From the IMG/VR virus record IMGVR_UViG_3300046370_000603: 64,000 nucleotides of DNA, one strand, 5' to 3'. The notes beneath the pieces are model-generated. The model searched no databases. It worked only from the letters and a program-made list of their open reading frames with translations, and was not told the DNA's origin. The stretch is from a virus. This document shows positions 13,427 to 54,409 of this stretch, in pieces (position 1 is the first letter of the stretch; each line of letters starts with the position of its first letter). A program made the position numbers and the translations under genes.

Positions 13427-13439
13427 TGTATACATAAAT

Positions 13440-13820: not shown

Positions 13821-14122
13821 GTGTAAATTGGGACGAATATAGCGACCTCCGAGCTCCTATTCTTGTTACTGACGATAAAGGCTTAGAAGTAATTGTCAAA
13901 AAAGTACAAAACTCTCGATGGAATGGCATGTGCATACATCCTAATGGGGTTTTTTCATTAATTGATTTTGGTATTTCAATAATAGGTGATGAGACGACTT
14001 CTGACCAAATTTACAAAAGGAATTGTGTTTACGACGATTACGATCAATACATCAAAATGTTCAAACAGACTACTTATGCTATTCTTCGTCAATTTAACTC
14101 GTGATTACTTTGTTTAATTAAT

Positions 14123-14902: not shown

Positions 14903-14934
14903 AATTAAATATAAATAATATTATAATATTATTA

Positions 14935-32507: not shown

Positions 32508-32828
32508 ATGAGGACGATTAATAATTTATTAATTATTTTGGTATTGACAGGATGCAATCATTCCTCTAATTTAAATCCAACAGATACAAAAGTCTCTCGT
32601 TCATCAGAGATGCAAGCAGAGATAGATTCAGTTCTCTCAAAAGATGCCGATAATAAAAAATTAGAAAAAGAATATTTAGAAGAAATAAGGAGGGCAGAAG
32701 AAAATAATGATCAAGAAGCATTTAAATTTTATTTATCAGAATATGTTAAAGTAGAAAGATTAAAATTACCCGAATGGATAAAGAAAGAACCAAATTATGT
32801 CCAAGGGGGAGTTAATATTAAATATTAA
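32508..32828 (+). CDS. Putative lipoprotein
   Basis: Signal peptide ending in lipobox LVLTGC. Confidence 0.5.
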   Translation: MRTINNLLIILVLTGCNHSSNLNPTDTKVSRSSEMQAEIDSVLSKDADNKKLEKEYLEEIRRAEENNDQEAFKFYLSEYVKVERLKLPEWIKKEPNYVQGGVNIKY

Positions 32829-32845
32829 TACAAAACAATTTAATT

Positions 32846-32920
32846 CGCATGGTAGCCAAGTGGTAAGGCAGGAGTCTGCAAAACTCTTATTCGTCAGTTC
32901 GATTCTGATCCATGCGTCCA
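32846..32920 (+). tRNA. tRNA-Cys(GCA)
   Basis: CGCATGG/CCATGCG acceptor stem, anticodon loop CTGCAAA, GTTCGATT T-loop, T discriminator, CCA. Confidence 0.95.
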
Positions 32921-35900
32921 CTTTTAGGTTCACCTCTTTTTGTTCTCTCCAAAAGAACACTCCCTGCTTGATCAACTAAAAAAGACTAGAAAGTAATTCG
33001 ATTACTACTATATCGGAGTTAGTCATGGATACTCTCCATGCAAATATTTAAAGTAAACTATGAAAATACAATTAGGAATAAGGGGTAGTGAAGATGCCAT
33101 GAATCACATCTTAATTAAAATAGATGATCTTATTTTAATGAATAAAGATAATTTATTTCTAGCAGGGAATGAAGGTAGAGATAACACAGGAAAAAATTTA
33201 GTTCAATTATTAAATACTCTATCCAAAGATCACGAAATATCTGTTAGTGAAAATGTTGCAGAACTTATAGAGAGCGAATTAGACATAAAAAACAACGAAA
33301 TTAAAAAATATTCAAAATAGTGTTGACATAAATAAAAAACTATTTTAGTATTTTTGTTATGAATACAACAGAAGCATTCCTAGAAAGCATAAATCAATCA
33401 ATCGCCAATGCTGAGAAGATAGCAAACTCGATTCCCAAGAAGGGTCTTAATGTTTATCTCGACAAATCAACTATGGTCATGCAAACATTCAATGATCCTA
33501 GTGCGTTTGCTCATGCCAAGAAAGTTACTTCAAGAGCAGGGCAATCAAGTTGTCTTCGCAATGTATTAGATGCAGGGGGTAGATTGCAATAATGCATGAT
33601 AAAAGATGCAAAATAATTGTTTAACTATATAAATACTATTTTTTTATCGAAAACACAACAAAATGCTTGACATATCATGCAAAATCAACTTGAATAACGA
33701 CATGGAAAAATTACCAACATACGAAGAGTGGACAAAAGACATGGACTTAGAAGCTCAAATAAAATTCTATTATGATGTTGACATTGACAATTATTTAGGT
33801 GATCCTTGGCAAATAGTAGCAGAGATTGCAGAGGAATGTCCTAATTGGTTGGCAGAGTTTAAAATTAATTTTAAAGAATATTTACAAGAAAAGGAATATA
33901 TTCAATGAAAGAAACAAGAGATCACTTTAGAGAAAAAAATCTTCATGTTCAAATGAAGTGGAATATTGAGCCACAAGAAATGCTAGATTATATTATTGAA
34001 GCAGATAAATCCAATGGAAGAGATTCAGATGAATATTCTCCTTCGTTTTATGTAGGCAAATCTCTCAAATATATTCGTGAAGTTTATGAAGATTATAATG
34101 GTCTTGAATCTTTAACTGATACTGAATTAATCGAGAATGGTTATTATAGATTGGAGATCGCATGAAAGAATTAAAAGAAAAATTAAATAAAGTTATCTCT
34201 AAACAAGTTGAGATGGTAAATAAATATGGCTCAAATACTCTCTCTACTTGTGATCATTATAATTGGGACAGGGATATTTGGAATTATAGGCATTCTATCG
34301 TTGACAAGTTAATTGATCTAGGTTTTAATGTCGATACTCAAATGAATTGGGGGGTATTAGATATAACAACAACAAAGGAATTAAAATTATGAATAATTAC
34401 ACAGACGATTATATAGACGATTATATAGAAGAAAACTTAAATAAGTTAGAATACGACTCTTTTACAGGCACTTATTGGTTGCAAGATGAAGAGTGGGAAG
34501 AGCCAAGGGAGTTTACTGCTGACGAATTAATTAACGAAGGAATTTATTTAAATGAATACTGCGAAAGAGTATAATGTAGAAATAGGCTTGACTCCAAGCG
34601 ATATTCAAGCTATTCTCGATGGAGAAATGTCAACACTTCACTTTTTACCAACTGATGATACTGATTACGAAGATAAGATTAGCGTTCATCTCAAGCCAAT
34701 TAGTGAAGATGCACCTTTATCAGAGCAAATGAATTTAGTTGTTGACACATGGAGCAGAAAAGAGTTATAGTATCGACATATCAATAACTATATGTTTACA
34801 AAAGGAGAAAACATCGACATGAATTACATAACAGAAGAAATTAAGTTTCGAGTTCCACAAAATGGTGGAGATCAATATCGCTTATATGAGTGTGTTGATC
34901 AAGTGGCAGATTTAATTGATATGTATTTCGGTACTGCAATAGAAGATACAACTAATATACATAATTTAATTGAAGAAGAAATTAAAACAAGTAAACTTAG
35001 AGAAGTAGAGCATAATAGATTAGAAAATATAAATGGGGGAATTAAATAAAAATATTTAGAAGATTAAATTAATTCTTTATTAAAATAAATTTTAATATTC
35101 AAATTAATTTATTTAATAAATTGTTAAAATAAAAATTATAAGAAAAATGAAAGAAGTAATACAATTAATTGAAGAAAAAATTTTAGAGATTAACAATTTT
35201 CCGATTACAACACAAGAGCAAGAGCAAATGCACATATTAGAAGTGGGATGCTTAAATCAGTTACTTAGAGTAGCAAAAGAACTTTCTGAATAAAAAACAA
35301 AAAAAGCATTGACTTATCATCATGCGTATTTTAGTATAACATCATGAATCTAGCAAGAGAAATAAACGAAAAATTGGATGCAATCTTATTTATGCGTAGT
35401 GAGATGCAACGCATGGATCACGACTTGGATGACGATCAAGTTCTTAATAATATACAAACAGGTGAGAAGACAAATAAGGAACAAGCGTTTGAAATAGTTG
35501 AAGGCATGATAAATGATGTAAAAAAAGAACTAAACCAAATAACAAATAATGGTTTAAATGTAAAAGATATTTTTACAAATAATTATTATATAAATGATTT
35601 CACGCAAGATAAGATTTGTTCTGAAATTGAAACAAATAATACGCTAAATAATAATCAACCAAATAATATAGGATTAAATTAATCATGATACAGATAATAC
35701 AACATTCTAACTTTAAAGAATTTTTTCAAGTTTTAAATTTCGGCAAAATCGTTGATGAATATCGAGGGGAAGCAATAGCGATAAGAAAAGCGTCTCGAAT
35801 TGCTAGAAAACAAAAGCAAGATAGCATTGAAGTATTGACCGAAAAGCAAGATAAAGTAATCCAAGTAAAAAAAGTTTGACAACCCGAAAATCATTTGCTA

Positions 35901-36810
35901 GGATGTAATCATAACATTCAAAATAGGAGAAAAAAATTATGGCAAACATAGCAAAATGTGCAAGAGCAACCGCAGTAATGAACAAAGTGAAAGGCAAAGA
36001 CCCATTTGCTTTTACTCGTAGGTTCTTAGGTTATAACGAAGCAACCGAAGGTATTCTCGCCCAACAAAGAGAGGCAGATCGTAGATTGAAACAAATTCAA
36101 GCCAAAAGATTAGCTAAGGGGGTAGCATAACATGGAAATAGTAACTCCATTAAATAAAAAAGTGAGTATATTTGCATCTAATGAAGAATTATATGAAAAA
36201 TTAACTCCACAAGAAATAATGTTAATTAAATTAGCCAAGATAGAGGAATTTGCAGATGATTTATATAGATCACACGATTCTGAAGCAAATAAAAAATTAT
36301 TTCCACCCGAAAAAAGTTGGTTTAAAATAAAAGAATTGTTAAGAGAATGTAGAAACTTGAACAAATGAAATTTGTAAAATTAATTATACTTTTTTTTATA
36401 TGTAATACATTGTATGGTAATTGTAAAAAATGGGAATTGCGTTTTACAGATAGTACGAGATATTACAGAGAAGATTTAGGGCTTAAATTTTTTAATGTTC
36501 GTATTGGCAACCACATTAAACATACAAGAACATTTCCGTATGGACATAAGTTTCAAAACATATCTGTATATCCAAGTTTAAACAAAATAACAATTCAAAA
36601 TTGGCGAACATTTAATCCTTGGATGGAAGCAGTTAGAAAAAACATGAAAGAAAAATATCCAAATAAAATTGTAAAACTAACATACTCCGAACATGGTGGA
36701 GCAAGCATTGAGCCACAATTCAGAAAACATATTTATTATTTATTTGTTCTTGACAAAGATCAATATTCATACTAATATGATAATCTCACACACAAAAAAG
36801 GAAAACAAAA

Positions 36811-39108
36811 ATGATAATCACACAGGAAAAATCTAAGGAAGTAATTAGTTCACACGATTTCGAGCAAGTTAATTGCACGATTGATGCAGAAGATATGCGT
36901 TATGTTGCATCTCTTCTTCGCAATAACTACTCTAACACTCGTCTTGCAGTAGTTAGAGAAATTAGTGCCAATGCTCTTGATGCCAATGCTGAAGCAGGTG
37001 TTACTCGTCCAATCGAAATCAAGTTACCAACTTCCATGAATCCAACATTTGCAGTTCGTGATTTTGGGGGTGGACTTAGCCAAGAAGATGTTTTCGGACT
37101 TTATTCCAAGTATGGTAAATCAACCAAACGCACATCCAACAATTACATTGGTGCTTTCGGTATTGGTAAATTTGCTCCACTTTCTTATGGTGACAATTTT
37201 ACTTGCGTTTCTTACCATGATGGCACAAAAACTTCTTACAATGTATTTGTTGATGAAAATGACGATACCAAGATCACAAAGTTGTTTGAAGAACCAAGCA
37301 ATGAACCAACAGGTTTAAGCATCGAAGTTGCAGTCTCCGAAGAAGATCGTAACGAATTTAGAGATGTTGTGCAAAAATTCTTTCGTTTCTTTTCTGATTC
37401 TGATATGCCAAAATTTCTTGGAGTCGAAGAAGATTTTATACAAACTCCTAAAAAAGTTTTGTCAAGTAAAACTGATGAATGGTTCTTTGCAGAAGATGAC
37501 AATAGGCATGGGTACAACCATTATTATTCTCATGTTCTTATGGGTAGAGTTGCTTATCCAATTGATCCAAATGCAATTATTGTTAGCAATTTTGTTTCCA
37601 ACGAAGATTCTCGCAGAATAATTCAACAACTTTTACAACAAAGTAATTTCTACTTTCGTGTGCCTCTTGGTTCAGTAAGATTGCATCATAGTCGTGAGTC
37701 GCTAGAATATAACAAAGCAACTCAAAAAGAAATTTGTGCGATTCTTTACAGAGTAAGTCAAGATATTCAAACTATTGCAAAAGAAAAACTTGCCGATAGT
37801 GAAGATTTGTGGGACGCAAAGAAAAACTATGCTCAAGTCGTTAATGCTCTACCTTATCAAGTAAGAGGAATATTTGAGAATAGTTTCGAGTGGAAAGGTA
37901 TCAAAATTGATAATTCTACATTCCAAAGAGACTATCAATTATCAGAAGATTTGATTATTACTCAATACGAAAAAGTTGAAGATAAAGATTCTCGCAATGG
38001 ATTCAAGGTAAGAGCAGATAAAACAAATCGCATTTATTGTCAAGACGATTATCTTGTGATGATGCAAGACATTGATTCTTCTCATGGCAACAATCTTAGA
38101 GTTCGCACTTTGATGAATGATTTACCCGATCTTAAAGGGGTTTTCGTTGTTCATCCTACTAGCGAATGTGGCAAATCAGAAGTTTATGATAATTGGCAAT
38201 TTGATCTTGTTGATGGAAAACATATTAGATATTCTTCTCTAGTAGAAAAGGAAAAAATTGTTCGCAATAAAGTTTCGGGTACAAGTCGTGCTTGTATTCC
38301 ATTGTTCAAGATGAAGTTTGACAAATCTAGTTATGCTTATCGTAATGCAGATTATTGGCAAAATGTCAACGAACCAATCAATTCACTTGAGCTAGGCGAA
38401 ATTGAAGGTTCTGTCAATGGTAAAATCATTTATGTTCCAATCAAAAACTACAAGGTTGATAGTGAATCTTATGATCTTGACAGAGTTTACAAAATCTGCA
38501 AGGGAGTTCGCAAAAAAGCCGAAGATAATTCTGATGAAAAAAATCTTCAATTATTCGGTGTGCGTTCAGCAGATGTCAAAAAACTAGATAAAAGTACATG
38601 GGTATCATTTTTTGATTTTTATCTTGACTATTGCAAGAACATCATTCGTAACAATAAGAAAGAATGTCAATCAGCATACAAAATAATTCAATTCAAAAAA
38701 TCTACCGATAATAATTTCGCTGAATATCGTTGGAGTTATGGTCAAGTATTTACCAATAACACATTTGATGTTTCTCTTTTCGGTGACCATTTATTTGCTC
38801 GTTGTGCAGAAAATTGGAAACTCCTTATGGAAGAGAATACAGATGATCGTAGATTTAGTGTTGCTATCAATGTCGTTAAGTTGGGTGATGAAGCATGGTT
38901 AGATGATATATTGGATACAAAAGTTGATGCAGAATCAATTATGCAGGATTTCAAATTACTTGATAAAAATTATCCTTTACTTCAAGTTGTTACAAGTCAT
39001 GTTAGCAATTGGGTCAATCTAAAACAAGACAATGACAAAAATGTAACCAACGAAACTCTCTTTGAATACATTTCCTTATGTGATGTGAATGGGGGAGAGA
39101 GAGCGTAA
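36811..39108 (+). CDS. rIIA: rIIA-like protein (GHKL/Hsp90-type ATPase N-domain)
   Basis: YSN..LAVVREISANALDA, VRDFGGGLS, YGKSTKR.SN..IGAFGIG; followed by rIIB-like gene. Confidence 0.85.
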   Translation: MIITQEKSKEVISSHDFEQVNCTIDAEDMRYVASLLRNNYSNTRLAVVREISANALDANAEAGVTRPIEIKLPTSMNPTFAVRDFGGGLSQEDVFGLYSKYGKSTKRTSNNYIGAFGIGKFAPLSYGDNFTCVSYHDGTKTSYNVFVDENDDTKITKLFEEPSNEPTGLSIEVAVSEEDRNEFRDVVQKFFRFFSDSDMPKFLGVEEDFIQTPKKVLSSKTDEWFFAEDDNRHGYNHYYSHVLMGRVAYPIDPNAIIVSNFVSNEDSRRIIQQLLQQSNFYFRVPLGSVRLHHSRESLEYNKATQKEICAILYRVSQDIQTIAKEKLADSEDLWDAKKNYAQVVNALPYQVRGIFENSFEWKGIKIDNSTFQRDYQLSEDLIITQYEKVEDKDSRNGFKVRADKTNRIYCQDDYLVMMQDIDSSHGNNLRVRTLMNDLPDLKGVFVVHPTSECGKSEVYDNWQFDLVDGKHIRYSSLVEKEKIVRNKVSGTSRACIPLFKMKFDKSSYAYRNADYWQNVNEPINSLELGEIEGSVNGKIIYVPIKNYKVDSESYDLDRVYKICKGVRKKAEDNSDEKNLQLFGVRSADVKKLDKSTWVSFFDFYLDYCKNIIRNNKKECQSAYKIIQFKKSTDNNFAEYRWSYGQVFTNNTFDVSLFGDHLFARCAENWKLLMEENTDDRRFSVAINVVKLGDEAWLDDILDTKVDAESIMQDFKLLDKNYPLLQVVTSHVSNWVNLKQDNDKNVTNETLFEYISLCDVNGGERA

Positions 39109-39130
39109 TTGCTCCTCTCCCTCAAATTTT
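39090..39130 (+). terminator. Hairpin between rIIA and rIIB
   Basis: GGGGAGAGAGAGC...GCTCCTCTCCC followed by an A/T tract. Confidence 0.45.
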
Positions 39131-39206
39131 TAAAAATAATTCTTGACAATATATACAAAACAATTTAAGATATAGATATATTAAACAAAAATAGGAGAAT
39201 AAAATT

Positions 39207-40361
39207 ATGAATCAAGTACCATATCAATTAACAGAAAATTCACTCACAATCTTTTGGGAAGGCAAGCCACACACAATTCGCAAAGATCATGTAAATTTCC
39301 AACTCGCCAAGAAAGCTATTCTTGATGCTAGATATGATGATCTCGGTGATCTTATTGATGTTGCCAAGGCAGTCGAAAATTTTGTTGAAGGTGATATTGA
39401 AGTTAAGGATGAAGTCGTTTATTACAAAGGTCATCGCTTGCATGGTGTTGTTGTTGACAAATTACTTGATATGCTTCGTGCAGGAATGAAAGATTCTGCT
39501 CCTCTTACCAACTTTATCACTCGCTTGCAAGCTAATCCAAGTGCAAATTCAGTAAATGAACTTTATTCTTTTATGAGTTATAAGTCTCTTGCGAATACTC
39601 CCGAAGGTAAGGTTTTGGGGTACAAAGGTGTGCAATCTGATTATTGGAGTACAACAGGTAATGCCGATACAATTGTATTGCAAGGGAAAACTAATGATCG
39701 TCACCAAATTCTCAATGAGGTTGGTGCAACAATTGAAGTTGCTCGTAGATGCGTAGATGACAATAAGGATAATCATTGTTCTTTTGGTCTTCATGTTGGT
39801 TCATTCGATTATGCTGATAGTTGGGCAGGAGAAGATGGAAGATTGCTTCTTGTGGAGTTTGATCCTGCTGATGCAGTATCTGTACCAACTGATTGTGACT
39901 TTCAAAAACTTAGGGTTTCTAAGTACAAGGTGATCTCTGATATTAGCGACACAAGAAAAGAGTTAAATAAACCTGTCTACGAGGCTAATAAGCCCATTTA
40001 TGGATCAGATGATGATGAAGACTGCGATTATGACGATGATGATTCTGATTTTGTTGATGAAGAGATGGCAGATAGAGTTGCCGATCATTATCTTAATAAT
40101 CCTAAAGATTTATTAGCTAATAATCCTCATTTGCTAGATAGTTATGAAGATAGAGTTGATTCAGTTGTGGAGAGCGTTCGCAAGTATGTTACTAATAAAT
40201 TAAATCTAGGAATTTTTCCAACAATTAAAGATATAGCAGATTTAAGAATTTGTAAATCCAATAAAATTGGATATGTTGGAGTAAAAAGTATTGTCGAAGA
40301 GTTAGGTTATGTTCTTGATTTTCTTGACTTGCCTCTTGGTCAACAAATTGTGGTCGAGTGA
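39207..40361 (+). CDS. rIIB: rIIB-like protein
   Basis: NPS..SV.ELY.F, GYKGV, VDD..NHCSFGLHVG, DPADAVSVP.D...KLRV..Y.V. Confidence 0.85.
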   Translation: MNQVPYQLTENSLTIFWEGKPHTIRKDHVNFQLAKKAILDARYDDLGDLIDVAKAVENFVEGDIEVKDEVVYYKGHRLHGVVVDKLLDMLRAGMKDSAPLTNFITRLQANPSANSVNELYSFMSYKSLANTPEGKVLGYKGVQSDYWSTTGNADTIVLQGKTNDRHQILNEVGATIEVARRCVDDNKDNHCSFGLHVGSFDYADSWAGEDGRLLLVEFDPADAVSVPTDCDFQKLRVSKYKVISDISDTRKELNKPVYEANKPIYGSDDDEDCDYDDDDSDFVDEEMADRVADHYLNNPKDLLANNPHLLDSYEDRVDSVVESVRKYVTNKLNLGIFPTIKDIADLRICKSNKIGYVGVKSIVEELGYVLDFLDLPLGQQIVVE

Positions 40362-42381: not shown

Positions 42382-42645
42382 GACCTCTCCGAGCAGTTGG
42401 AAATTGTTGGAGGCTCGGAGGGGTCGCTTAAATTTTGGAAGGGCTTATAATCCTTCCTGTGGGTGACCCGAATAAGCCTGTCGTGAGCGGGCTAAGGTAT
42501 GCAAATTCCCTGTGGTGGGGCGGTAGAGTTCAATCGAATGAGCCGATGACAAATACCATGTCTAATTTGTAGTTGGAAGTAGGTACACCATGAACTGATG
42601 TTCACGCCGAAAACTTGAAGGTATACAGTAATCCTTCCCCACACT
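42382..42645 (+). ncRNA. Putative structured non-coding RNA, unassigned family
   Basis: GC-rich island with no ORF >=60 aa, multiple hairpins, TGTGGG/CCCACA closing helix, between a consensus promoter and a terminator. Confidence 0.6.
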
Positions 42646-42666
42646 CTATTTATCATCCCCCACCCC

Positions 42667-42722: not shown

Positions 42723-43165
42723 GTTTTGACAACTGCGTTTTTATTTATTATAGTATACTCATGAAAACATTAAAAGACATACTATCAAATTACGGGTACA
42801 TCAACAGCAATCAACTTAAGGAGATAGCAGAGCACTTTCCTGCGTTCAGGGTGGTAATAAAATGGAGCGGGCTCCCCCGCGAGCGTCTTCCAGCCTGGGA
42901 GGCAATATCTAGAATCAAATCTGTAGAGGATCAAGATATCGATTACTGTAGAGAAGTATTTATATCAGGTAAAGAATATAATATATTACTAGACGCCTTT
43001 AATATTGCAAAATAAAAATAAATAACAAAAATATATTATGGAAATAATACTCGTATTAACGGTAGCCCTAGGAGTAAAAATGTTATTAGATGAAATATAA
43101 AAATAAATAAAATATAAAGTAAATAAATAAATGATGAAATAAATTTGATTATGATTACCTCCTTG

Positions 43166-43194
43166 ACCCCCACTGTAACAGGTGGGGGTTTTTT
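43166..43194 (+). terminator. Intrinsic terminator
   Basis: ACCCCCAC...GTGGGGGT + TTTTT. Confidence 0.75.
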
Positions 43195-43216: not shown

Positions 43217-43288
43217 TAAGTCTTTAATTATCAAGCACTTGCGAGCGCGGCTGCCGTGCTACATAAGTCCTTGATTGACAAGCTTTTA
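43217..43288. repeat. Dyad element copy 1
   Basis: TAAGTCTTTAATTATCAAGCACTTG-N22(GGCTGCC)-TAAGTCCTTGATTGACAAGCTTTTA. Confidence 0.92.
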
Positions 43289-44926
43289 CAAAAGCATTTT
43301 TATTTACTTTTTATTTGACAGAAACTAAAAATTAGTTTAGTTTTATATTATGCAAGAGACAATAGATATTACACCAACATGGTCAGCACTCATTCTTCCG
43401 ATGATTGAGGTGTTGAAGAACCCAAAAGCAGGATACGAAGACAAGCAAAATGTTATATTTGAATTAAAGCGTTTGGCTAAAATCGTTGACGACCAAAACG
43501 CAAAGATCAAAGCAAATGACAAAAACAAAACTAATTAAAGAAATTTTAGATCAAATGAATTATCTAAGCCCACGAGAATTGATGAAAATTTTCGAGATGA
43601 TTTATGGTCAAGGAGAAGTTGAACTAAAAGAAGTAGATTGGAGTAAGTAATGACATTATCAGAATCAATTATGGACATCGTTAGAGGCAACCTCGCATGG
43701 TCAGACCCCATGTCAACAGTTTGCCTCGATCAACATGAGCGTCACCCCGAAAAGTTTCCAAAGGGTAGCTCGTTTCAAACTGAAGATGAATCTTTAGCAG
43801 ACATCATTCGAGACTTGACATTATTACAAAATGAGCTTAGGATAGAATCATCTTTTCAATCAGCACAACTATAACACAAGGAAAAATCATGACAACAGTA
43901 TTAGACACACCCGAACAAATCGAAATGTTTCGCTACAAAACTCTTCTTAAAGGGTTAAGGCTCGAGACTTTAGGAATGCAAATGAGCAGGGGCAAATCTT
44001 GCTATTCTATCATCAAACAAGAGTTCGGTCTCAAAGGTAGCAAGCAAAAAGTTTTCGATCAATTCAAATTAATGTTAGAACAAGTAAACGAAAGGGCAGT
44101 ATAATGACAGCATCACAAGTAGAAGCGAGAGTAGAAAGTTGGAATTGGAATATGAATATCTTTGAGATTTATGATGAACTTAGAGATGGACATTCAGCAA
44201 AAGATCAAGAAAATTTACTTTCTTTTGCCTATCGTTATTTTAACAAAGACAAAATGATTTTAGAGCTTGCCTCTCATTTTGGAATCTATAACATAGAGGA
44301 TGATAACAATGAATAATTACATAGAAGCAACCTGCATCGGCAGTCCACTAGGTTTGCCCGAATACAATGAAGATACTGAGCAATGGGAAGTATTTTTTGA
44401 AGAATCAGAAACGCCTTGGTTTCCATACGATATTCCAAGAGACATTCTATCCGTGAGCTTTGAGTCGGCAGATTTGGCTTGCGATGTTTACAATCACTAC
44501 AACCAAAACCCCGTAAAAGAAGAAACTCAAGATGAAGAAATTACTAATTAAAATTTATCGCTTTTTTAATCCGCTATACCAAGTGGTTTATCAAACCAAA
44601 GATGGTAGAACCGAAATGTACACAATTACAAAACCTATGCACGAAAATGAATTCGGCAACCAACAAGAGGGAAAAGATGTCGTTGGCTTCAGATCTTTTT
44701 GCGTGAATAAAGATGGTATCAGATCTTTTCGTTATGACCACATTGTATCCCTAACCAAAATCTAATTATGAAGAAAGAAATACAAAATAAAAATACCCTA
44801 CAAGAGAGCTTGAGAAGATTTGGGCATATGCTTGCCATGCGTGAGCAGCGCGGCGATAATTCAACGGAATACAAAAAGAAACAGGCTATGCACGAATCTA
44901 TGCTAAGAAAGCTTTACAACCAATCG

Positions 44927-44998
44927 TAAGTCATTGATGCTCAGCCACTTAGGTGGCGGGCTGCCGTGCTACATAAGTCCTTGATTGACAAGCGTTTA
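44927..44998. repeat. Dyad element copy 2
   Basis: TAAGTCATTGATGCTCAGCCACTTA-N22(GGCTGCC)-TAAGTCCTTGATTGACAAGCGTTTA. Confidence 0.92.
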
Positions 44999-45060
44999 AA
45001 AATTTAAAATTATTTAACTTTTTTCTTGCAGTAATTAAAAAAATTGCTTAGTATGTTTAC

Positions 45061-45474
45061 ATGATACTAAGAAACCAACAAGATCCACGATACACAATCA
45101 AAAAGAATCGTCCCGTATATGTTTACAAGAATCTACATAAAGATTGTTGGAGCATCAAGCAACATGGATTAGTAAAAGCTCACATTCCAAAGGATCATGC
45201 TATTGGATTATGGGATTGCTATTTTCATGTCGATGCCAAAGGCAGAGAAAAAGTTCTTCGTGAGAAGCGTAAGAATGTTCATGCTTTTGTCAAGGGCTAC
45301 CTTCAAGATGCTGAGAATGTATCTCGCAATCCCCAAGTTGTCACCAGGAAAGTCGAGGTAACATATAATCCTTACAAGTATGAGACTTTTGTCGAGAAGG
45401 ATACCGAAAAGTTTGCGTACTATGCAGACGAAGTTTTATTAACACACAACAAAGTAACCGCTTATATGTCATGA
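45061..45474 (+). CDS. Conserved phage hypothetical protein
   Basis: VYKNLHK.CWSI...GREKVLREKRKNVHAFV.G...YNPYK motif recognised from other phages. Confidence 0.6.
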   Translation: MILRNQQDPRYTIKKNRPVYVYKNLHKDCWSIKQHGLVKAHIPKDHAIGLWDCYFHVDAKGREKVLREKRKNVHAFVKGYLQDAENVSRNPQVVTRKVEVTYNPYKYETFVEKDTEKFAYYADEVLLTHNKVTAYMS

Positions 45475-45832
45475 ATATTACAACAGCATTAGAAATTGTA
45501 TTAGACCTAGCCAATCAAAATGTTATTGACGATCCTGAAATGAAAGAGGAGGCATCAAAACAAAATGAAGCTATTGAATGGGTTGCATATTATTTAGAAA
45601 ATTTTATAAAGAAAGGTAAACATTAAAATGAAAGAAGAATTATACTCAATTAAAACCGCCATTGACGGACTCAGCGATGAGATACTAGAACATCGCAGAC
45701 ACGCAAACATGGACGACCTCGTCAAGGTAATGAAGAATATCAACGACAATCTTGTTGCAATTAGTTTCGACTTAAAAGATCTAGTTGAAGCAAAAAAGTT
45801 TCAAAATGAGTTGACAACCGCACTCAGATAGG

Positions 45833-45904
45833 TAAATCCTTTATAGTCAGTCACTTAGGTGACGGGCTGCCGCGCGATCTAAGTGCTTGATATTCAACGA
45901 TTTA
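45833..45904. repeat. Dyad element copy 3
   Basis: TAAATCCTTTATAGTCAGTCACTTA-N22(GGCTGCC)-TAAGTGCTTGATATTCAACGATTTA. Confidence 0.9.
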
Positions 45905-46346
45905 AAAAAATCAAAATTACTTAACTTTTTTCTTGCTATAATTAGGTATTTAGCCTACTATGTATATATGAAAGCGAGAGAGATAAAGATCAGAAAACCA
46001 ATTCTTTTTACTAAGTCCCGCCCGCACAAAGTTAAAAACAAGACAATCCACAGAAAACTCAAACATAAGGAATTATTAGCATGAATATCAGCGAAGACTA
46101 TTTAGACAATGAAAACCCAAATGCAGACGAAGTAATGACTCGAGCCATGAGTTGGCTTTGGAAACACTTCATTGAACCTAACACAGATCACATTACAGAA
46201 GAACAAGCTGAAATGCTTACAATGATTGGCGTTAGCTTTAAAATGATTGCAGAACAAGCTGATGCTTACGATCAAACTTTTGAAGAAAGTCCATATTTAA
46301 ACAATTAACTCTTGACAAAAAACATTATAACTATTATTATACTATC

Positions 46347-47219
46347 ATGAATACAGAAGAAAACAACATTAACGCTCCTCGCAAATCCGTAAACTTACAC
46401 ATTTGTGGAGGTAATCGTACTTTAGTAGATTTTGATCAAGTGCAAGCAGTACCAACTCCTTTGGCAACCATGCGTAGCAAACCAAACAAAAGAACAGGTG
46501 AGCTTGCTGTTTCTCATCAGCCAATCGCTCATGATGAGCTTATCGTTCGCACTAGAGAATCTTTAACTCAAAAAGGTTTTGCTATTCAAGATGAAGTTCA
46601 CTCTCTCGCTAGAGGCGATCAGCACTATTTCGGTTTATTTGCCGTAGATCATCCTAATCGAGTTGCAACTGATCGTGGTTGCGTTGTGGGCGTTCGTAAC
46701 TCTCACGACAAAACATTCCCCGCAGGACTTTGTGCAGGTGATGCTCCATTCGTTTGCGATAATTTAATTTTTACCAATACCATTAAACTTGCTCGCAGAC
46801 ATACTCGCAACATTCTCAACGATCTTGACTTTATGATCAATCGTGCTTTGGGTAAGTTGTTCGGATTTTGGCATGGACAAGATCAAAGAATTGAAGCCTA
46901 CAAAGATCGTTCTATCGGCAATGTTCTTGCTCACGATCTAATCATCAAAGCGGTTCGTGCAGGTGCTTTACCAAAATCTAAAATTCTTGATGTTGCAGAT
47001 CAATGGGAATCAAGCGATCATGTTGAATTTAAGGATCGCAATGTCAATTCTCTTTATAATGCTTTCACCGAAATTTACAAAGGCAACTTAGTTGCCTTGC
47101 CAAATCGCTCGGATGCTCTTCATTCTGTTCTTGACAACTATGTTGATTTTAATATCGACAACCATGTTGAAAATACTCTTGATATGGAAGTTGTTGAAGG
47201 CGAATTGGTTGAAGTTTAA
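46347..47219 (+). CDS. DUF932-like phage/plasmid protein
   Basis: H.PI.H, GVRNSHDK, G...FVCDNL.F, RRHT, SLYNAFTE. Confidence 0.65.
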   Translation: MNTEENNINAPRKSVNLHICGGNRTLVDFDQVQAVPTPLATMRSKPNKRTGELAVSHQPIAHDELIVRTRESLTQKGFAIQDEVHSLARGDQHYFGLFAVDHPNRVATDRGCVVGVRNSHDKTFPAGLCAGDAPFVCDNLIFTNTIKLARRHTRNILNDLDFMINRALGKLFGFWHGQDQRIEAYKDRSIGNVLAHDLIIKAVRAGALPKSKILDVADQWESSDHVEFKDRNVNSLYNAFTEIYKGNLVALPNRSDALHSVLDNYVDFNIDNHVENTLDMEVVEGELVEV

Positions 47220-47242
47220 AAATTGGTTTGTCGTTTCGTTTT

Positions 47243-47270
47243 GCTCCCCCGATTGGGGGAGCTTTTTTTT
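47243..47270 (+). terminator. Intrinsic terminator
   Basis: GCTCCCCC-GATT-GGGGGAGC + T8. Confidence 0.85.
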
Positions 47271-47289
47271 GGAATGATTTAGGCTTTTG

Positions 47290-47361
47290 TAAGTCTTTGG
47301 TTATCAAGCACTTAGGGGCGCGGCTGCCGCGCGCCATAAGTCGCTGATGTTCAACGATTTA
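47290..47361. repeat. Dyad element copy 4
   Basis: TAAGTCTTTGGTTATCAAGCACTTA-GGGGCGCGGCTGCCGCGCGCCA-TAAGTCGCTGATGTTCAACGATTTA. Confidence 0.92.
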
Positions 47362-47651
47362 AGAATGTCATTTTAGTTCATTTTTTTCTTGCGTTAAATT
47401 GTTTTTTTTGCGATAGTGTAACCATGAAAAGAATAGTAAAAATCTTAATGGAGCGTGACGGGCTTTCCCGCGAAGACGCTATTCACCAAACCGCAACTTT
47501 TTTCCGTGAAATGTCTGAAGACATTGCAATGGGTGGTGATCCATTCGAATGGGAAGAAACATTTACCAGTGAGTTTTCTCTAGAACCAGATTTTTTTGAA
47601 GATCTTATTTTTTCGCTTGCAATTGCATAAAAATTTGGTTAGTTTTATATT

Positions 47652-48377
47652 ATGAATCTATTATCAAACCCATCTAAAATGCCTTGCTTAGGCTTTAACA
47701 TTCCCGCTTTCAAGTATTGCCCTGCAGCTCAACTCATGGCAAAGGTCAAGGACAAAGCAAAAAAGTTTATTTGTGATGCTTGTTATGCTTGCAAAGGTTT
47801 TTATATGTTTAACAATGTCAAACAAAGTTTGCAAGACAAGGCAAATTTTGTCACCAAGTCTTTACATCGAGACAATGGGCAAACTTTTGTAAATGAGATA
47901 TCCAAGCAAATCAAGGCAAAGTATTTTGACAAGCAAGGCAACAAAAAAGTTTTAAAGAATGTCAACACAGATCTTTTTCGTGTTCATGATTCAGGAGATC
48001 TTTTTTCCCCAAAGTATATCGAGGCATGGATTAAGATTTGCGAAAATTTTCCTTCAATTCGCTTTTGGTTTCCAACTCGTGAGTGGGCAAGAGATAGTCA
48101 ATTGCCTTCACTTCGCAAGCTCGCAAGTTTAAAGAATGTTTGCTTAAAACCAAGTGCTTTATATGTTGATGAACCCGCTCCACAAATCGATGGTCTAGAT
48201 GCGGGAACTTCCGTCTATAGCTCAAAAGAGAAAGCTGAGCAAGACGGGCATTTTGTTTGTCCCGCAACTTATGTTAAGGGCGAAGACGGCAAGGTTCTTG
48301 CAACTTGTAAAGCTCATAATTGCAACTTATGTTTTATCAAAGGATGCAAAAAAGGTATTGCATATTTAGCTCATTAA
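47652..48377 (+). CDS. GP88-like Cys-rich phage protein
   Basis: SKMP..FNIPA..CP, C.ACYA.KG.Y, FRVHDSGD, FWFPTRE, C-terminal CPA..C...C..C. Confidence 0.7.
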   Translation: MNLLSNPSKMPCLGFNIPAFKYCPAAQLMAKVKDKAKKFICDACYACKGFYMFNNVKQSLQDKANFVTKSLHRDNGQTFVNEISKQIKAKYFDKQGNKKVLKNVNTDLFRVHDSGDLFSPKYIEAWIKICENFPSIRFWFPTREWARDSQLPSLRKLASLKNVCLKPSALYVDEPAPQIDGLDAGTSVYSSKEKAEQDGHFVCPATYVKGEDGKVLATCKAHNCNLCFIKGCKKGIAYLAH

Positions 48378-48569
48378 TCTATAATTAAAGCCATGAATGA
48401 AGAAACTTATTTTGACTCAGCCCAAGGAATTGACATTTCACAAGATCGTGCCTTAGAAGAATTAGCCAGGCACGGCATTACTTCCAGTGAGGAAATTATT
48501 GAATTTTTTGAAGACATGGGCGACAAGGAAGGGTATTCAGCCCAAAAAGTTCTTGAGTGGTTAGGCTAC

Positions 48570-48641
48570 TAAAGCCTTGACTATCAAGCACTTAGGGGCG
48601 CGGCAGCCGCGCAAGCTAACTGCCTGTTAGCCAACGACTTA
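48570..48641. repeat. Dyad element copy 5
   Basis: TAAAGCCTTGACTATCAAGCACTTA-N22(GGCAGCC)-TAACTGCCTGTTAGCCAACGACTTA. Confidence 0.9.
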
Positions 48642-49573
48642 CACAAGCATTTTTATTTAACTTTTTTCTTGCGTTAATTGTAGAAAGAGTTTAATGTGTT
48701 TATATGATTAACTACGACATACCAAACTCAATCTCACAATTCAACCCAAAACCTTCTATGTTAGATTTTGACGATCTAGATTTTCAACCACATCGTGGTG
48801 CTGATGATGCAGTCCAAGCAAGACTTGACTTTGGCAACGGGCTAGAAATTTCTGTTGTTGCAAGTAAAGATGGCAGAGCAGGATTATATGGTAGTGTGGA
48901 GGAAGATTTGTACGAAGTTGCAGTTTTTTACAACAATGAAATGATTCCGCTTTCTCGTTCTGACGATGTTGTTGGCTGGCAATCTCCTGCTCAAGTATCT
49001 ATCCTAATGGCGAAAGCTCAATCCGAAGGAAGCGTTTGGGTTGATGAGCTAATTGCAGACAAAGCAGAATTTAGAAGAGATTTAGGGCTTGACGACTAAA
49101 CCAAACTAAACTATATTATTACTATGACAGAAGAACAAAGACTCGCAGTTATCGCTAACGCATATCGTGAATCCAAAGGTTTGCCAACTAATTCCTCAGT
49201 ATTAGAATTAGTCGCAGACTTACAAGCAGAACAATTGGTTGTCGAGCATGGATTGAAAGATGTTGAAAGAGATGACATTACAGATGAAACTCAGTTCTTA
49301 CTTACTGATGTCGCTGAAGATATTGATGAGGAAGATGAAGAAATCGGATTATCCGATGAAATGAAAGGAATATATTATGATAGTTGAATTGTTTTTATTA
49401 TCGCCTTGGCTTCTTGTTTTTTATATTATGTGGAAAGATATGATAGAAGAATGATGCCAATTTTAATTATATTATCGATTCTACTTTATCTTTATATCCA
49501 AGACTAAATTTCTCAAATAGCAAATAACTTTTTTTAGTAGTATTAGTTGAAGTTGTTGGATTAGCCCTCGTCC

Positions 49574-49645
49574 TAAGTGATTGATAATCAAGCACTTAGG
49601 GCGGGCGGCTGCCAAATTCATAAGTCCTTGATTATTAAGGATTTA
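49574..49645. repeat. Dyad element copy 6
   Basis: TAAGTGATTGATAATCAAGCACTTA-N22(GGCTGCC)-TAAGTCCTTGATTATTAAGGATTTA. Confidence 0.92.
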
Positions 49646-49889
49646 TTTTTTTTATTTTTTTCTTGCAAGTTTTATTTTTTTATAGTAGTTTACTTTTATG
49701 GATAATCAACAAGACTCTCTCGAAAACATTGCTCACGCCTACGGCATCACTGATGCTGATCTTGATGAACGCGAATCTGTGCTTGCTCAAATAGCACAGG
49801 AAGAACTTGAAGAGTATGACCGCCAAGCTCTCAAAAAATTCTCTGAAAACGAGGATTTTGACTGGGGTTATCACGCCCAATGGGATTTC

Positions 49890-49961
49890 TAACTCGTTGG
49901 TAGTCAGTCACTTAGGTGACGGGCTGCCGACAAGCTTAAGTCTTTGATTATCAAGCTTTTG
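49890..49961. repeat. Dyad element copy 7
   Basis: TAACTCGTTGGTAGTCAGTCACTTA-N22(GGCTGCC)-TAAGTCTTTGATTATCAAGCTTTTG. Confidence 0.9.
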
Positions 49962-50023
49962 CAAAAGCATTTTTATTTACTTTTTTTCTTGCGTATTTTA
50001 AAATTTTGTTCTAGTGTGTATAC

Positions 50024-50230
50024 ATGAAACATTCAGAAAGTGGAACTCGCAAAGTGTTAAAACAATTACGGAAATGTCCTGAAATCGAAAAGATTCGTGA
50101 GACTGCAAGTGGGCATATGATCCTTGCTAGAAATGGAGAGCAGTATCTCGCCCATTTTAGTGCAAGAGCATTTCACCCATTGCGTAGATGGTTAAAAAGA
50201 AACACTTCATTAAAAACATTAAAATTCTAA
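50024..50230 (+). CDS. Small basic protein, possible HicA-like fold
   Basis: 68 aa, helix followed by RETASGHMIL...H pattern reminiscent of HicA. Confidence 0.3.
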   Translation: MKHSESGTRKVLKQLRKCPEIEKIRETASGHMILARNGEQYLAHFSARAFHPLRRWLKRNTSLKTLKF

Positions 50231-50234
50231 AATT

Positions 50235-50456
50235 ATGGATACTTACAACGGCTGGAAAAACTGGGCGACCTGGAATGTTGCTCTTTGGTTAGGGAATGAC
50301 GAATATCTTTACAAACTTTCTCGTAGGTTTGTTAATTACAAAGATCTTGCAAATACGCTCATAGAAATGGGTAGTCCTTGTACGCCTGACGGGGCAAGGT
50401 ATGCAGATGAAGACTTAGACACCTACGCCCTCGATGAATTGTTGCAAGAAGAGTAA
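50235..50456 (+). CDS. Conserved phage hypothetical protein
   Basis: YNGWKNWATWNVALWLGNDE.LY...TPDG motif. Confidence 0.6.
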   Translation: MDTYNGWKNWATWNVALWLGNDEYLYKLSRRFVNYKDLANTLIEMGSPCTPDGARYADEDLDTYALDELLQEE

Positions 50457-50524
50457 GTCGTTGATTATCAAGCACTTAGGTGCTTGGCAGCCGCACCCAT
50501 AAGGGCTTGGCTATCAGTGACTTA
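50454..50524. repeat. Dyad element copy 8, at the convergence of + and - transcription
   Basis: TAAGTCGTTGATTATCAAGCACTTA-N21(GGCAGCC)-TAAGGGCTTGGCTATCAGTGACTTA. Confidence 0.92.
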
Positions 50525-51383
50525 TGTCAGCAATCTTTTTGTGATTCCCATTTTAGTTTCCAATCCCTGCAACGGCAGGAAGTTTTTAGTGCGGGTGTTG
50601 AAAGTTTTGCAATTTGTTGCCCGACATCAAATCGTGCTTGCCAAGCTTTGCCGTAAGCAACCGATTGATCTTGCAAACTCTTTGAATTATCCCAAAGATT
50701 ATAGCAACGGGCATTTAAGTCATTCCATTTTTGATTTAATTCTTGCAATGTCATAATTATTTTCCCCTTATAGTTTTTCGGTTAACATTTCTTCCCTTAC
50801 CGCATTGTTTGCAATGTTGTTAATTTCGGTCATCCATTTATCAACATTTTCATTGAACACTTTTCCATCGCCTGAAATGTTTTCTGCAACTGTGTTTTTA
50901 ATAGCTCTTGCTTGAGCCGCAATGCCTAAGAGTGCTCTTGACAAGTTGTAAGCTTGGTGATTTTTATATGAATCGTTTTCTATTAAGTCAACGATTGAGA
51001 TGGTGTCCGTATTAGCTTTCATATATATAAGGTAAACGATTTATTAAGTAATTGCGAATTTTATTTTAGTAAATTTAAAAGATCATTTACGCATGGTTCA
51101 GTGATGTGTCCATCTACTTTCATTGCGTCGATGATTTCTTTATTTGTTACATCTTTAGATGCTTCGACTATTTGATCCCAAGTCCAAACATTATTTGCGA
51201 CATCTTCCCACAGGGAAACGCCCGACTTTTCGTCGCGTGAAAACTCAAGAAGCCCATTGACTCCGATTACATGATTGATTCTGATCTTATCCATAAAAAC
51301 AAGGTAAACTAGTGGTGCGTGTTTTGCAAGCAAATACAGATTTTTTTTTGTCTTTTTATTTAAATACCAAATAGTCAAATAGT

Positions 51384-51452
51384 GCAACTTTTTAGGAGTG
51401 GCGGGATTGTGCAACTTTATAGTTGTAGTAGTATTGGGCAACTTTATAGTTG
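51384..51452. repeat. Three GCAACTTT(ATAGTTG) direct repeats with 27-bp period
   Basis: Copies start at 51384, 51411 and 51438. Confidence 0.75.
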
Positions 51453-51477
51453 GCACACTTCCTGAACTCCTCTTTTG

Positions 51478-51548
51478 TAAGTCGTTGTTTATTAAGCACT
51501 TACAGCAGCGGCAGCCGCCTCCCTAAGTGCTTGATTATCAGTGACTTA
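51478..51548. repeat. Dyad element copy 9
   Basis: TAAGTCGTTGTTTATTAAGCACTTA-N21(GGCAGCC)-TAAGTGCTTGATTATCAGTGACTTA. Confidence 0.92.
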
Positions 51549-52584
51549 GGAGGCTGATCTTATCGGTGTGCTAGACCTTCCAATCGTGCTATTTGATTGT
51601 CCAATTCTATTTGTATGGCTTCAATGTCTGAAGCCTTCTTTTTATTGTTTAATTTCATCGCCTTGACTCTTTCGTTATTCAACGCCATGATTTGAGTTCT
51701 TAATTTGTTTATTGTGTTTTTTATGTATTCCATGATTAGATTAAATCGTAGTATTGTGGCGAGTAGTCAACATGGCAAGAGTGGGATTCTATCTCTTCAT
51801 CCATGTTGTCGTTAAGTTCTTTTTTAATTGCTTTGACAAGATCCAAATTGATTGAATCAATCTCTTTGCCGTTACCATCAAAACGCTTTACGCTTTCAAG
51901 AGTATCAAAGTAAGCTACCAAGTGAACGGCTGAGACTTGGTCTCCATAAAGAGACTCCTCTGTATCTGTCGATGCTCTACCTTGCAGTTCGTAGTATTCT
52001 TCGCCCACTTCAGCATAGGCGGAAAACTCTTCTTCGGTTACTTCGTCGAATTCTATTTTTATTTCTGTCATACCTTACTATCGTCTATTTTTTAACTTTT
52101 GTCAAATTTATTTTGAATTATTTTTGAAACATTATTTCAAGGCAAGTGTCGAATTGTTCACGAAAGAGTCTTGGTGCATCTGTGACAAACCAAGTTTTGC
52201 TAGTGTTTGTGATTAACCTTTCTGTGATCTTTTTGCTTACGACATCTAAAAGATCTGTATTCTCGTAAATGTTGGATTCTGTCAATTCGTTTGTTTGTTC
52301 GTTTACTAGCTTTGCCATGTAGACATCTATATATTCGGGTTTATATGAATCATTTATCAAGATGTCATCTTGACAAGCTACTGCCTCAACCCTGTAAGTT
52401 GTGCCGCTTATTCCCATCAGGAAGTTAAAAGTGAATTCTTCTGTGTCTGTATTGTATATTGATTTCATATACATAAACTAAGGCATATATTAACTAAAGT
52501 CAAATTTATTTTGAATTATTTGGCAACTATTTTATTGCATTATTCTATCACATGAATTGGCATGGTTTCTGTACATGCGTCTCG

Positions 52585-52655
52585 TAAGTCGTTGTTTATT
52601 AAGCACTTACGAGGGCGGCAGCCGCCGCCCTAAGTGCCTGATTATCAGTGACTTA
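52585..52655. repeat. Dyad element copy 10
   Basis: TAAGTCGTTGTTTATTAAGCACTTA-N21(GGCAGCC)-TAAGTGCCTGATTATCAGTGACTTA. Confidence 0.92.
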
Positions 52656-53680
52656 GGAAAGCGTTTTAGTTATAGTGTATAGATGTATAGTGCAACCGAT
52701 AAGAGGATTATGCAAGTCATACATACACCTCCTCTGTATGTGTTACCCAATCGTATTCGTCAATTTCTTGCCCGTTTAGCATAGGGGTAAAGTTCTTTTG
52801 ATAAATGCCTAATCCTGTTATGCCGTTGACTCTTTCCCTTGTTGTTGGAGTGTTCCAACCTGCAAGCGTTGCCATTACAAGCCCGCTTACATCTCGTTTG
52901 ATTATCTCGTTGCCATGTAAGAAGACGCTTGTGCCGTCTGTTCTTGTGTTGCCAACCTTTAGAGAAGTGCCTTGCTCAAAGGCTTTTTTAATTCTTTCTG
53001 TTACTTTACGCATTTGTTTCTTCCTCTGTTATGATTTGAAAATGTGGATTGTTTCGTTTTATTTGTTTTGCAATTTGCAAGGCTTTTGCTTGTGATTTTG
53101 CGTTGTCTATTAGTTCCCCAAAAAGGCGAATGTCAAACCAATTTGAAAAGTTAGGATTTCGTAGTATTTTAATCATTTCTATTTTTACCTTTCCTTGTGT
53201 GTTGTGTCAAGACTTACCTTTTAAAGTAAGCCTTGACTTGATCGGCAGTTGCCTTGATTAGGTCAGAGATAAAAACCTCTGACTCGAAAAGATGATCTTG
53301 CGAATGATGCTTGATCGTTGCGACCCGTTGAGATCCGACTCTGTCGATAGACACGAGACGAACAACTTTATTATTAACCTTTGAGTGGTAAAGGCTTCCG
53401 ACTTTTAATCCTTTAGTAATGTTCATATATACAAGGTAAACGAATTGGTGCGTTGTGTCAAACTATTTGAGTAAAAAAAACGCTTTTTTTAAAAGTTTTT
53501 TTGGTTGCACTATACCCCCATTTTTTGAATTTTTTCCCGCCCCTCAATCTCAGATTTGGCGGGGGGGTGGGTTTTCTCAAAAAGTTTCCCGCGTATTCTC
53601 ACTGAAATAACCTTTTTTGAAAAAAAAACGACGCATATTTGAATTCTAACTGTATATAATGATAATAATATTATATAAAT

Positions 53681-54409
53681 ATGCCAAGACGAAAAAAACC
53701 TGAAATTACTAATGATCAGGATATTGAAAATATAGTAGGTACTATTGGAAAAACTAAAATAAAAACACACAAAATTAGTTTTACCGATAAACAAACTGAG
53801 TTATTAAAAATCATATTTGATAGAAATACTAAAATAGTTTTTGTTAGTGGTCCTGCGGGCACTAGTAAAACTTTTATGGCTATATACGGCGCTATACAGC
53901 TGTTTAATATGAATAATGACTACTCTATTGGATATGTTCGAACAATTATAGAAAGTGCAGATAGAGGCATGGGCGCCCTTCCTGGTAACGTAGATGAAAA
54001 GTTCTGTCCTTTCATGATGCCTTTAACCGACAAGCTTTATGAACTTAGCCCAGCGTCCGACGCAAAAAAAATGATTGACAAGGAAATAGTAAAAGCTATG
54101 CCAATAAATTATTTACGGGGAGCTAGTTTTAAAGATCAGATCATTATAGCTGATGAATCACAAAATTTCACAACAAAAGAACTAATTACTTTAATTACTA
54201 GAATTGGCGAAAATACCAAACTAATAATTTGCGGCGACTCTATGCAAGCTGATATTAATGGAAAGAGCGGCTTTAACCCAATCAAAGATCTTTTTAGTAA
54301 TGAAGCAAGTGAAAAGCAAGGTATATATAATTTCGAGTTTGATTATAAAGATATAAAACGTAGCGAAATATTAAAATATATAGTTAAAAAATTAGAGGAA
54401 TTAGATTAA
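53681..54409 (+). CDS. phoH: PhoH-family ATPase
   Basis: GPAGTSKT, G.LPG...EK, YLRGASF, IADESQN, ITRIGENTK..CGD..QAD. Confidence 0.92.
   Translation: MPRRKKPEITNDQDIENIVGTIGKTKIKTHKISFTDKQTELLKIIFDRNTKIVFVSGPAGTSKTFMAIYGAIQLFNMNNDYSIGYVRTIIESADRGMGALPGNVDEKFCPFMMPLTDKLYELSPASDAKKMIDKEIVKAMPINYLRGASFKDQIIIADESQNFTTKELITLITRIGENTKLIICGDSMQADINGKSGFNPIKDLFSNEASEKQGIYNFEFDYKDIKRSEILKYIVKKLEELD

Follow-up and report, generated by a model that had tools for sequence, protein, structure and literature searches.

The viral record IMGVR_UViG_3300046370_000603 was analysed over a stretch of 64,000 nucleotides, hereafter the window, which contains a tract of small genes divided by ten copies of a dyad element. 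The copies are 71-72 nt long, lie between positions 43217 and 52655, and each consist of two 25-bp palindromic arms flanking a G+C-only spacer. A search of the window with the arm pattern, allowing up to three mismatches, gave 13 matches where 0.03 were expected, all of them within 43217-52655, and a profile hidden Markov model built from the ten copies recovered just those ten, with scores of 60-74 bits. The original prediction, a short reading of the window that preceded this analysis, had claimed ten copies and none elsewhere in the window, and both searches agree with it. The copies are as follows.

43217..43288, plus strand: copy 1; arm, GC spacer with GGCTGCC, arm; canonical terminator upstream at 43165-43190
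44927..44998, plus strand: copy 2; its first TAA terminates the ORF at 44768-44929
45833..45904, plus strand: copy 3; found by repeat finding and profile match
47290..47361, plus strand: copy 4; canonical terminator upstream at 47243-47262
48570..48641, plus strand: copy 5; its first TAA terminates the ORF at 48393-48572
49574..49645, plus strand: copy 6; spacer one base longer, promoter just 17 nt away
49890..49961, plus strand: copy 7; its first TAA terminates the ORF at 49698-49892
50454..50524, minus strand: copy 8; where the rightward and leftward gene sets converge, with no adjoining promoter and with reverse polarity
51478..51548, minus strand: copy 9; between genes of the leftward operon, with a GTG start and its AGGAG 22 nt after it and no promoter
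52585..52655, minus strand: copy 10; in the leftward operon; about 70 nt beyond it, on the minus strand, is a promoter-like site

Anatomy of the element and of its modules

Each copy is an inverted repeat of a half-unit of about 35 nt around a central W, and the 20 half-units obtained by splitting the copies at the centre follow a single consensus. The motif GGCWGCC is found in all ten copies, with its centre 35-36 nt from the start of the first arm. The 25-bp palindromic arm described in the original prediction was recovered, but the palindrome is imperfect, its inner half being less variable than its outer half. The most conserved bases of the element are TAA, TT(G), (T)CAA and ACTTA, and the first TAA serves as the stop codon of the upstream open reading frame (ORF) in four of the ten copies (ORFs ending at 44929, 48572, 49892 and 50456). 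The element has a weak polarity, as seen when the copies were scored with a profile made from copies 1-7 only, to which copies 8-10 fit better in reverse. Across the related phages described below, the polarity tracks the gene direction, with 45 plus and 10 minus orientations at rightward genes versus 3 and 12 at leftward genes (p = 1.6e-5).

The 72-nt dyad also emerged from repeat finding, and in five to six copies the repeat extends over 99-141 nt, through an A/T tract and a promoter to the ATG. After the second arm of copies 1-7 the layout is the same in all seven cases and consists of a gap, TTGNN, 18 nt, a TAGTWT-like -10 box, exactly 6 nt, and an ATG. The gap from the arm to TTG is 26-28 nt in six of these copies and 17 nt in the seventh. 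The rightward units thus arranged probably have functional promoters and near-leaderless mRNAs. Copies 8-10 consist of the dyad alone, with no promoter at the standard distance. The original prediction had placed a promoter plus ORFs between the copies, which is correct for copies 1-7 but not for copies 8-10, which end or sit inside a leftward operon. The promoters and modules are arranged as follows.

43289..43352, plus strand: promoter of unit 1; A/T tract, -35 box TTGAC at 43315, -10 box TAGTTT at 43338, 6 nt, ATG at 43350
45026-45063, 45933-45970, 47389-47426, 48669-48706, 49663-49700 and 49989-50026, plus strand: the same promoter layout
43350..50456, plus strand: seven rightward modules of 1-8 small ORFs each, with two family matches only, L5 gp82-like (45061-45474) and GP88-like (47652-48377)
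50527..53426, minus strand: three leftward modules, in which one ORF is Kyano_Gp96-like (52717-53013); they abut phoH at 53681-54409

Two textbook intrinsic terminators, each with a GC stem and a T run, are located 27-28 nt upstream of copies 1 and 4, separate from the dyad, and termination there does not require the element. A terminator scan of the window called none of the ten elements, and Rfam gave no match at any of them, its matches elsewhere in the window being limited to the manA RNA and two tRNAs. Neither Pfam, applied to 20 ORFs in and around the array, nor PHROGs, applied to ten of those, detected a DNA-binding domain, which leaves no candidate reader of the element among these genes.

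Related phages carry the element in a single stretch

An exact 20-mer from the arm retrieved 10 viral contigs, seven of which bear arrays of whole elements, while the GP88-like protein retrieved 26 loci. The final comparison set comprised 17 non-redundant related contigs with 144 element copies. The complete relatives have genomes of 194-214 kb that are rated 100% complete. In each of four relatives of about 200 kb, the arm matches are confined to one stretch of at most 10 kb, which indicates that these genomes do not use the element as a terminator or promoter motif in general. The stretches are as follows.

G001, 25176-34339: arm matches
G032, 12814-15557: arm matches
G033, 179750-188975: arm matches
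G034, 183794-192717: arm matches

The motif GGCWGCC, which the original prediction had called invariant, is so in this genome, but in the relatives it is replaced by other G+C-only centres, each genome having its own homogenised version. The distance between the arms also differs, being 41-42 nt from centre to centre in G033 versus 46-47 nt in the window, a difference of half a turn in helical register.

More distant relatives, identified by a GP88-like protein with 57-59% identity, have none of these elements. The corresponding position is instead occupied by another GC-rich dyad of 35 nt, composed of TTGGCACGG, about 15 nt, and CCGTGCCAA, which precedes an A/T tract, a promoter with TTGAC and an ATG. 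In two cases this dyad directly follows the 3' end of a tRNA gene, for tRNA-Cys and tRNA-Leu (L033, 6835-6945 and 9814-9936), indicating that tRNAs also occur in cassette-like units. The architecture is conserved and the dyad is lineage-specific.

Modules are shuffled among the relatives

The original prediction proposed that the elements delimit units that the phages add, delete and reorder. Comparison of the 17 contigs supports this and adds inversion to the list; module order and content are variable rather than fixed. In the closest relative, which has 85-90% nucleotide identity to the window, module 2 (45061-45831) sits between modules 4 and 5, and module 6 is missing. Gene-family maps display the module orders M1 M2 M3 M4, M1 M3 M4 M2, M3 M2 M1 M4, and M2 M1 M3-new module-M4, as well as fusions, losses, replacements and inverted modules. 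Three inversions were confirmed by blastn, and each abuts an element.

The association of rearrangements with the element was quantified by scoring gene adjacencies in the other genomes holding both gene families. The adjacency was kept in 153 of 579 cases (26%) across an element versus 969 of 1342 cases (72%) with no element between the genes. Counted as distinct adjacencies, 47 of 52 with an element were broken versus 45 of 69 without one (Fisher p = 0.0013), the latter figure being inflated by crude ORF calling.

Breakpoints fall inside the element

To locate the exchange points, the junctions were compared by an automated three-way comparison of pairs with flanks at least 80% identical, which yielded 14 comparisons representing about seven independent events. 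In all 14, the switch from one parent-like sequence to the other lies inside the element (positions 0-72), two of them being placed within the broader interval from -1 to 50, and none occurs in the flanks or in the promoter repeat. The switch intervals include 10-17, 18-24, 30-43, 53-59 and 67-72. Between zero and eight inconsistent sites were observed per junction comparison, which suggests patchy conversion. In three-way alignments of the window and its closest relative, the left half of the element goes with the upstream module, while the right half and the promoter go with the downstream module.

Within the element, the identities of adjacent 12-nt segments are nearly uncorrelated (r = 0.1-0.27), and a linkage-break test at the centre revealed no special break there. 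Spacers are more alike within a genome (0.62-0.65) than between genomes (0.54-0.56), which together with the genome-specific centres suggests concerted evolution. A flank-homology profile of 105 pairs shows that homology falls off over the entire element, a picture blurred by concerted evolution and too noisy without the flank-identity filter. A max-chi-square breakpoint scan that included the flanks found only the edges of the element.

The original prediction noted that no recombinase was visible in the window, and none was seen here; tyrosine (PF00589), serine (PF00239) and Y1/HUH (PF01797) recombinases were also absent from the complete relatives of about 200 kb (4-5 genomes, with PF00589 absent from five relatives rated complete). 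Three of four complete relatives carry a RecA-family gene. Scattered and patchy switches are the pattern of homologous exchange with conversion, and in combination with the variable centres, the absence of the three recombinase families and the RecA-family gene in three of four relatives, this speaks for homologous recombination with gene conversion rather than for a site-specific enzyme.

Sequence rather than pairing is conserved in the arms

Tests of 133 distinct copies against column shuffles revealed no excess of pairing in intra-arm, inter-arm or spacer helices (z = +1.4, +0.9, -3.2 and -0.9), and high mutual information was observed between adjacent columns only. The predicted RNA folds vary by copy, from one long hairpin to three hairpins to a fold no better than that of shuffled sequences. 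Of five copies folded, four are far more stable than their shuffles (z = -4.8 to -6.2), copy 2 being the exception (z = -0.29). A symmetric sequence that is kept when the pairing is not is the signature of a dimeric DNA-binding protein, and the arms look like sequence-specific protein sites.

The arm consensus contains the consensus for IHF, WATCAANNNNTTR, on both strands. The ten elements make up 1.1% of the window and hold 14 of its 29 exact matches to WATCAANNNNTTR, with 12.8 matches expected window-wide. Across the 144 copies there is about 1.0 exact match to the IHF consensus per element. A sub-threshold match to the HU/IHF family (14.9 bits, in a frame of 70 aa) was observed in the cassette array of one relative (G003:C1:16137-16247); it is the sole candidate reader of the element that was seen, and the score does not suffice for a call.

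The arm is identical to a bacterial intergenic palindrome

A scan of a bacterial genome collection with the arm pattern gave eight stretches, seven of which are contigs of a single Microscillaceae metagenome-assembled genome (MAG; JALONJ01). This MAG of 6.8 Mb contains the 25-bp palindrome in 48 exact copies and in 358 copies with at most one mismatch, versus zero for a control pattern. In a sample of 54.5 kb, 38 of 42 sites lie between genes, whether these are in tandem, convergent or divergent. The palindromes are often clustered, with two to four per spacer, and their variable positions do not covary. Other Microscillaceae genomes also contain the palindrome (1-11 copies in 14 of 24), while no exact copy was found in a sample of 400 other Bacteroidota. 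A search of the literature for the palindrome core returned irrelevant matches only. The phage arm equals a genuine bacterial intergenic palindrome, which leaves two readings, a reader common to host and phage or a host repeat taken over by the phage; each provides a lead towards a Microscillaceae-like host.

The MAG has three Y1_Tnp matches, and the two Y1_Tnp loci that were retrieved contain no copy of the motif at up to four mismatches. By a rough estimate, the MAG is not enriched in doublets with the spacing of the phage; three cases were found, with AT-rich spacers. The eighth stretch, RFXU01000148, is a contig of 4.8 kb binned in a Flavobacteriaceae MAG that carries six complete elements together with cassette genes of the phages and is probably a piece of phage DNA, either mis-binned or binned through a host link.

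Identity of the phage and other features of the window

The best matches of the terminase among cultured phages are non-T4 proteins with 24-26% identity, and the Pfam match to the N-domain of T4-type terminases is weak. The source is a large uncultivated phage that is not T4-like. An earlier guess of a T4-like cyanophage, based on the manA RNA, PhoH and Kyano_Gp96, was dropped in view of the terminase comparison. Searches of the region 30000-40000 and of the ORF at 7732-9369 against cultured phages with megablast and tblastn gave no match.

The manA RNA (Rfam RF01745, 79 bits) is located at 42437-42647, about 570 nt upstream of copy 1. Its identity to the closest relative is 97%, compared to 70-85% for the neighbouring DNA. 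The window encodes two tRNAs, tRNA-Thr (12505) and tRNA-Cys (32846), and the phage contig also encodes a protein of 765 aa whose ATPase domain is of the GHKL type (HATPase_c_3), an FAD oxidoreductase (DAO) and a GT61-like glycosyltransferase (36811-39108 and 1114-6275).

Comparison with known systems

The closest counterpart is the promoter-early stem-loop (PeSL) cassette of T4-type phages (Arbiol et al. 2010, PMC2839356; Comeau et al. 2014, PMC4122927). PeSL dyads are lineage-specific, as is the dyad here, and exchange has been ascribed to recombination between the repeats (PMC2839356, PMC4122927). In both systems, a composite repeat is placed between small, mostly unknown genes of a hyperplastic region, an A/T tract, a sigma-70-like promoter and a start codon come just after the dyad (here in seven of ten copies), and insertions, deletions and replacements between relatives occur at the repeats. 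The two differ in several respects. The present phage is not T4-like, and its element is a 72-nt compound of two 25-bp palindromes and a GC spacer rather than a short stem-loop. There is no Shine-Dalgarno sequence, the ATG being located 6 nt past the -10 box. Units are frequently inverted, the arms show no covariation and are identical to a repeat of a bacterium, and all copies are found in one block of at most 10 kb. Mini-circles have been shown experimentally for PeSLs (PMC2839356, PMC4122927), whereas here only contigs were compared. The original prediction of an integron-like or mobile-promoter array survives in its mobile-promoter half, which matches the PeSL concept (PMC2839356, PMC4122927), but not in its integron half.

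Integron cassettes with attC sites are likewise small gene units bounded by imperfect palindromes, and their order and content vary among relatives. Here, there is no IntI or other tyrosine recombinase, and the arms end in TAAGT/ACTTA rather than RYYYAAC/GTTRRRY, in accordance with the original statement that the element is not attC. Integron cassettes are promoterless and depend on a common Pc, whereas all seven rightward units have their own promoter; the exchange points are not fixed, and units also invert. An integron-like site-specific system is contradicted by the lack of a recombinase, by exchange spread over 72 nt, by a core that varies between genomes and by cassettes with their own promoters.

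Repetitive extragenic palindromic (REP) sequences, bacterial interspersed mosaic elements (BIMEs, including the IHF-binding RIB/RIP class) and REP doublets forming hairpins (REPINs) resemble the element in being intergenic palindromes in inverted pairs that have an IHF-type consensus and act as substrates of rearrangement. However, the IHF-like sequence is here the palindrome itself and not the spacer, there is no linked REP-associated tyrosine transposase (RAYT), and the phage copies lie in one region rather than genome-wide, while those of the bacterial MAG are dispersed. Sites for bending proteins of the IHF/HU family are known upstream of or at phage early promoters, as for TF1 in SPO1 and IHF in Mu and lambda. 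In contrast to these, no HU/IHF gene is found in the present phages, there are two double sites per promoter, and three copies are promoterless.

Interpretation and alternatives

We consider it probable, while well short of certain, that the element is the boundary module of small-gene cassettes in a clade of uncultivated phages of about 200 kb, and that these cassettes are shuffled in the manner of PeSLs by homologous recombination. The arm pairs would act as sequence-specific docking sites for a protein. In rightward units, the element comes directly after the stop codon of the upstream gene and is followed by the A/T tract, a sigma-70-type promoter and the ATG. Every border has the same 72 nt, or about 140 nt with the promoter, and the element is its own inverted repeat, so that general homologous recombination and gene conversion between copies could excise, move, replace or invert whole units while leaving the genes undamaged. 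Homologous recombination would be the mechanism of exchange, and protein binding the everyday function, the protein perhaps being an IHF/HU-like bending protein of the host. The element may also insulate or activate the neighbouring promoter.

Some observations weigh against this reading or parts of it. The apparent rearrangements come from comparing metagenomic contigs, and 45 of the 69 element-free adjacencies are also broken somewhere, which in part is noise from the crude ORF calling. In the closest pair, two of the three junctions switch in the GC spacer and the third is a mosaic that also involves the promoter; with about seven events, a preference of exchange for the centre of the element is possible. 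No RecA-like gene was found in the closest complete relative, G001. The element is more than a promoter component, given that three of ten copies have no promoter at the standard distance. The 5-bp difference in arm spacing between genomes argues against two bound proteins that need a fixed helical register. The IHF consensus used is that of E. coli and may not hold for Bacteroidota, and no HU/IHF gene was found in the phages, the single match being sub-threshold. The cassette genes may be expressed early, and the host may be a Microscillaceae-like member of the Bacteroidota.

An element acting at the RNA level would account for several features of the array. In this case, the 3'-end dyad would fold as a terminator, as an RNase III-type processing site like those between the early genes of T7, or as a stabiliser, and shuffling would be a by-product. 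The dyad begins at or a few bases from the upstream stop codon, most of the folded copies are far more stable than shuffles, the DNA after copies 1-7 is T-rich, and the polarity tracks the direction of transcription. Furthermore, a plain GC-rich hairpin is placed at the equivalent position in the distant relatives, twice directly after the 3' end of a tRNA. We nevertheless regard this explanation as unlikely: the 133 distinct copies display no compensatory variation under any helix model, it is sequence and not pairing that is conserved across genomes, the folds differ by copy with copy 2 being unstable, canonical terminators already precede copies 1 and 4, the U-rich run does not adjoin the stem, and the same arm is found in divergent intergenic regions of a bacterium. 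Less probable again, and best described as speculative, is a version of the protein-site reading in which the arms dock a dedicated phage- or host-encoded protein that pairs the elements and actively drives exchange and inversion, so that the array would be a programmed gene-shuffling device; if the factor were from the host, it would also read the identical intergenic palindromes of the Microscillaceae.

The geometry of the element, two inverted binding sites around a short centre, recalls the core site of a recombinase, and GGCWGCC is invariant in the ten copies of the window. A dedicated integron-like system, in which an unrecognised recombinase binds the arms, exchanges strands in the GC core and moves cassettes as circles, would also be compatible with the spacer switches in two of three closest-pair junctions, with the five of 14 comparisons that place the switch at positions 30-43, and with the homogenised centre of each genome. 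However, the other switches are in either arm and linkage does not drop at the centre, the centre varies in sequence and length between genomes, the junctions are patchy as in gene conversion, the cassettes have their own promoters with no attI- or Pc-like head, and 4-5 complete relatives lack tyrosine, serine and Y1/HUH recombinases, all of which makes such a system very unlikely. Equally hard to sustain, and in our judgement highly improbable, is a selfish REP/REPIN-like element or miniature inverted-repeat transposable element (MITE) that has spread by transposition, perhaps mobilised by a host enzyme, with no role in the phage. The arm has the very sequence of a high-copy intergenic palindrome in one Microscillaceae MAG, this MAG has Y1_Tnp matches, and the doublet form recalls REPINs. 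Against this, the phage copies are not scattered but lie in one stretch of at most 10 kb with a single copy at each module border, Y1 transposases (PF01797) are missing from the phages, the two retrieved Y1_Tnp loci of the MAG are without the motif, doublets at the phage spacing are not enriched there, and covariation is absent. The layout is also kept with another dyad in the distant relatives, suggesting a function.

Significance

The gain is incremental in that the principle of PeSL-type shuffling has already been published. What the present case adds is the occurrence in another phage lineage, a compound 72-nt dyad of protein-site character, the frequent inversions, a bacterial twin of the arm and the mapping of junctions at the nucleotide level. 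The comparative support is unusually clear, including translocation, loss and inversion, with every resolved break located within the repeat. The boundary-module reading would extend the PeSL idea beyond the T4-type phages, with repeated regulatory borders serving as joints for the swapping of small accessory genes, and the self-complementary nature of the border would explain the flipping as well as the moving of units. Finally, the identity of the arm to the palindrome of one bacterial family provides leads both to the host lineage of this phage clade and to a DNA-binding factor that may be common to host and phage.

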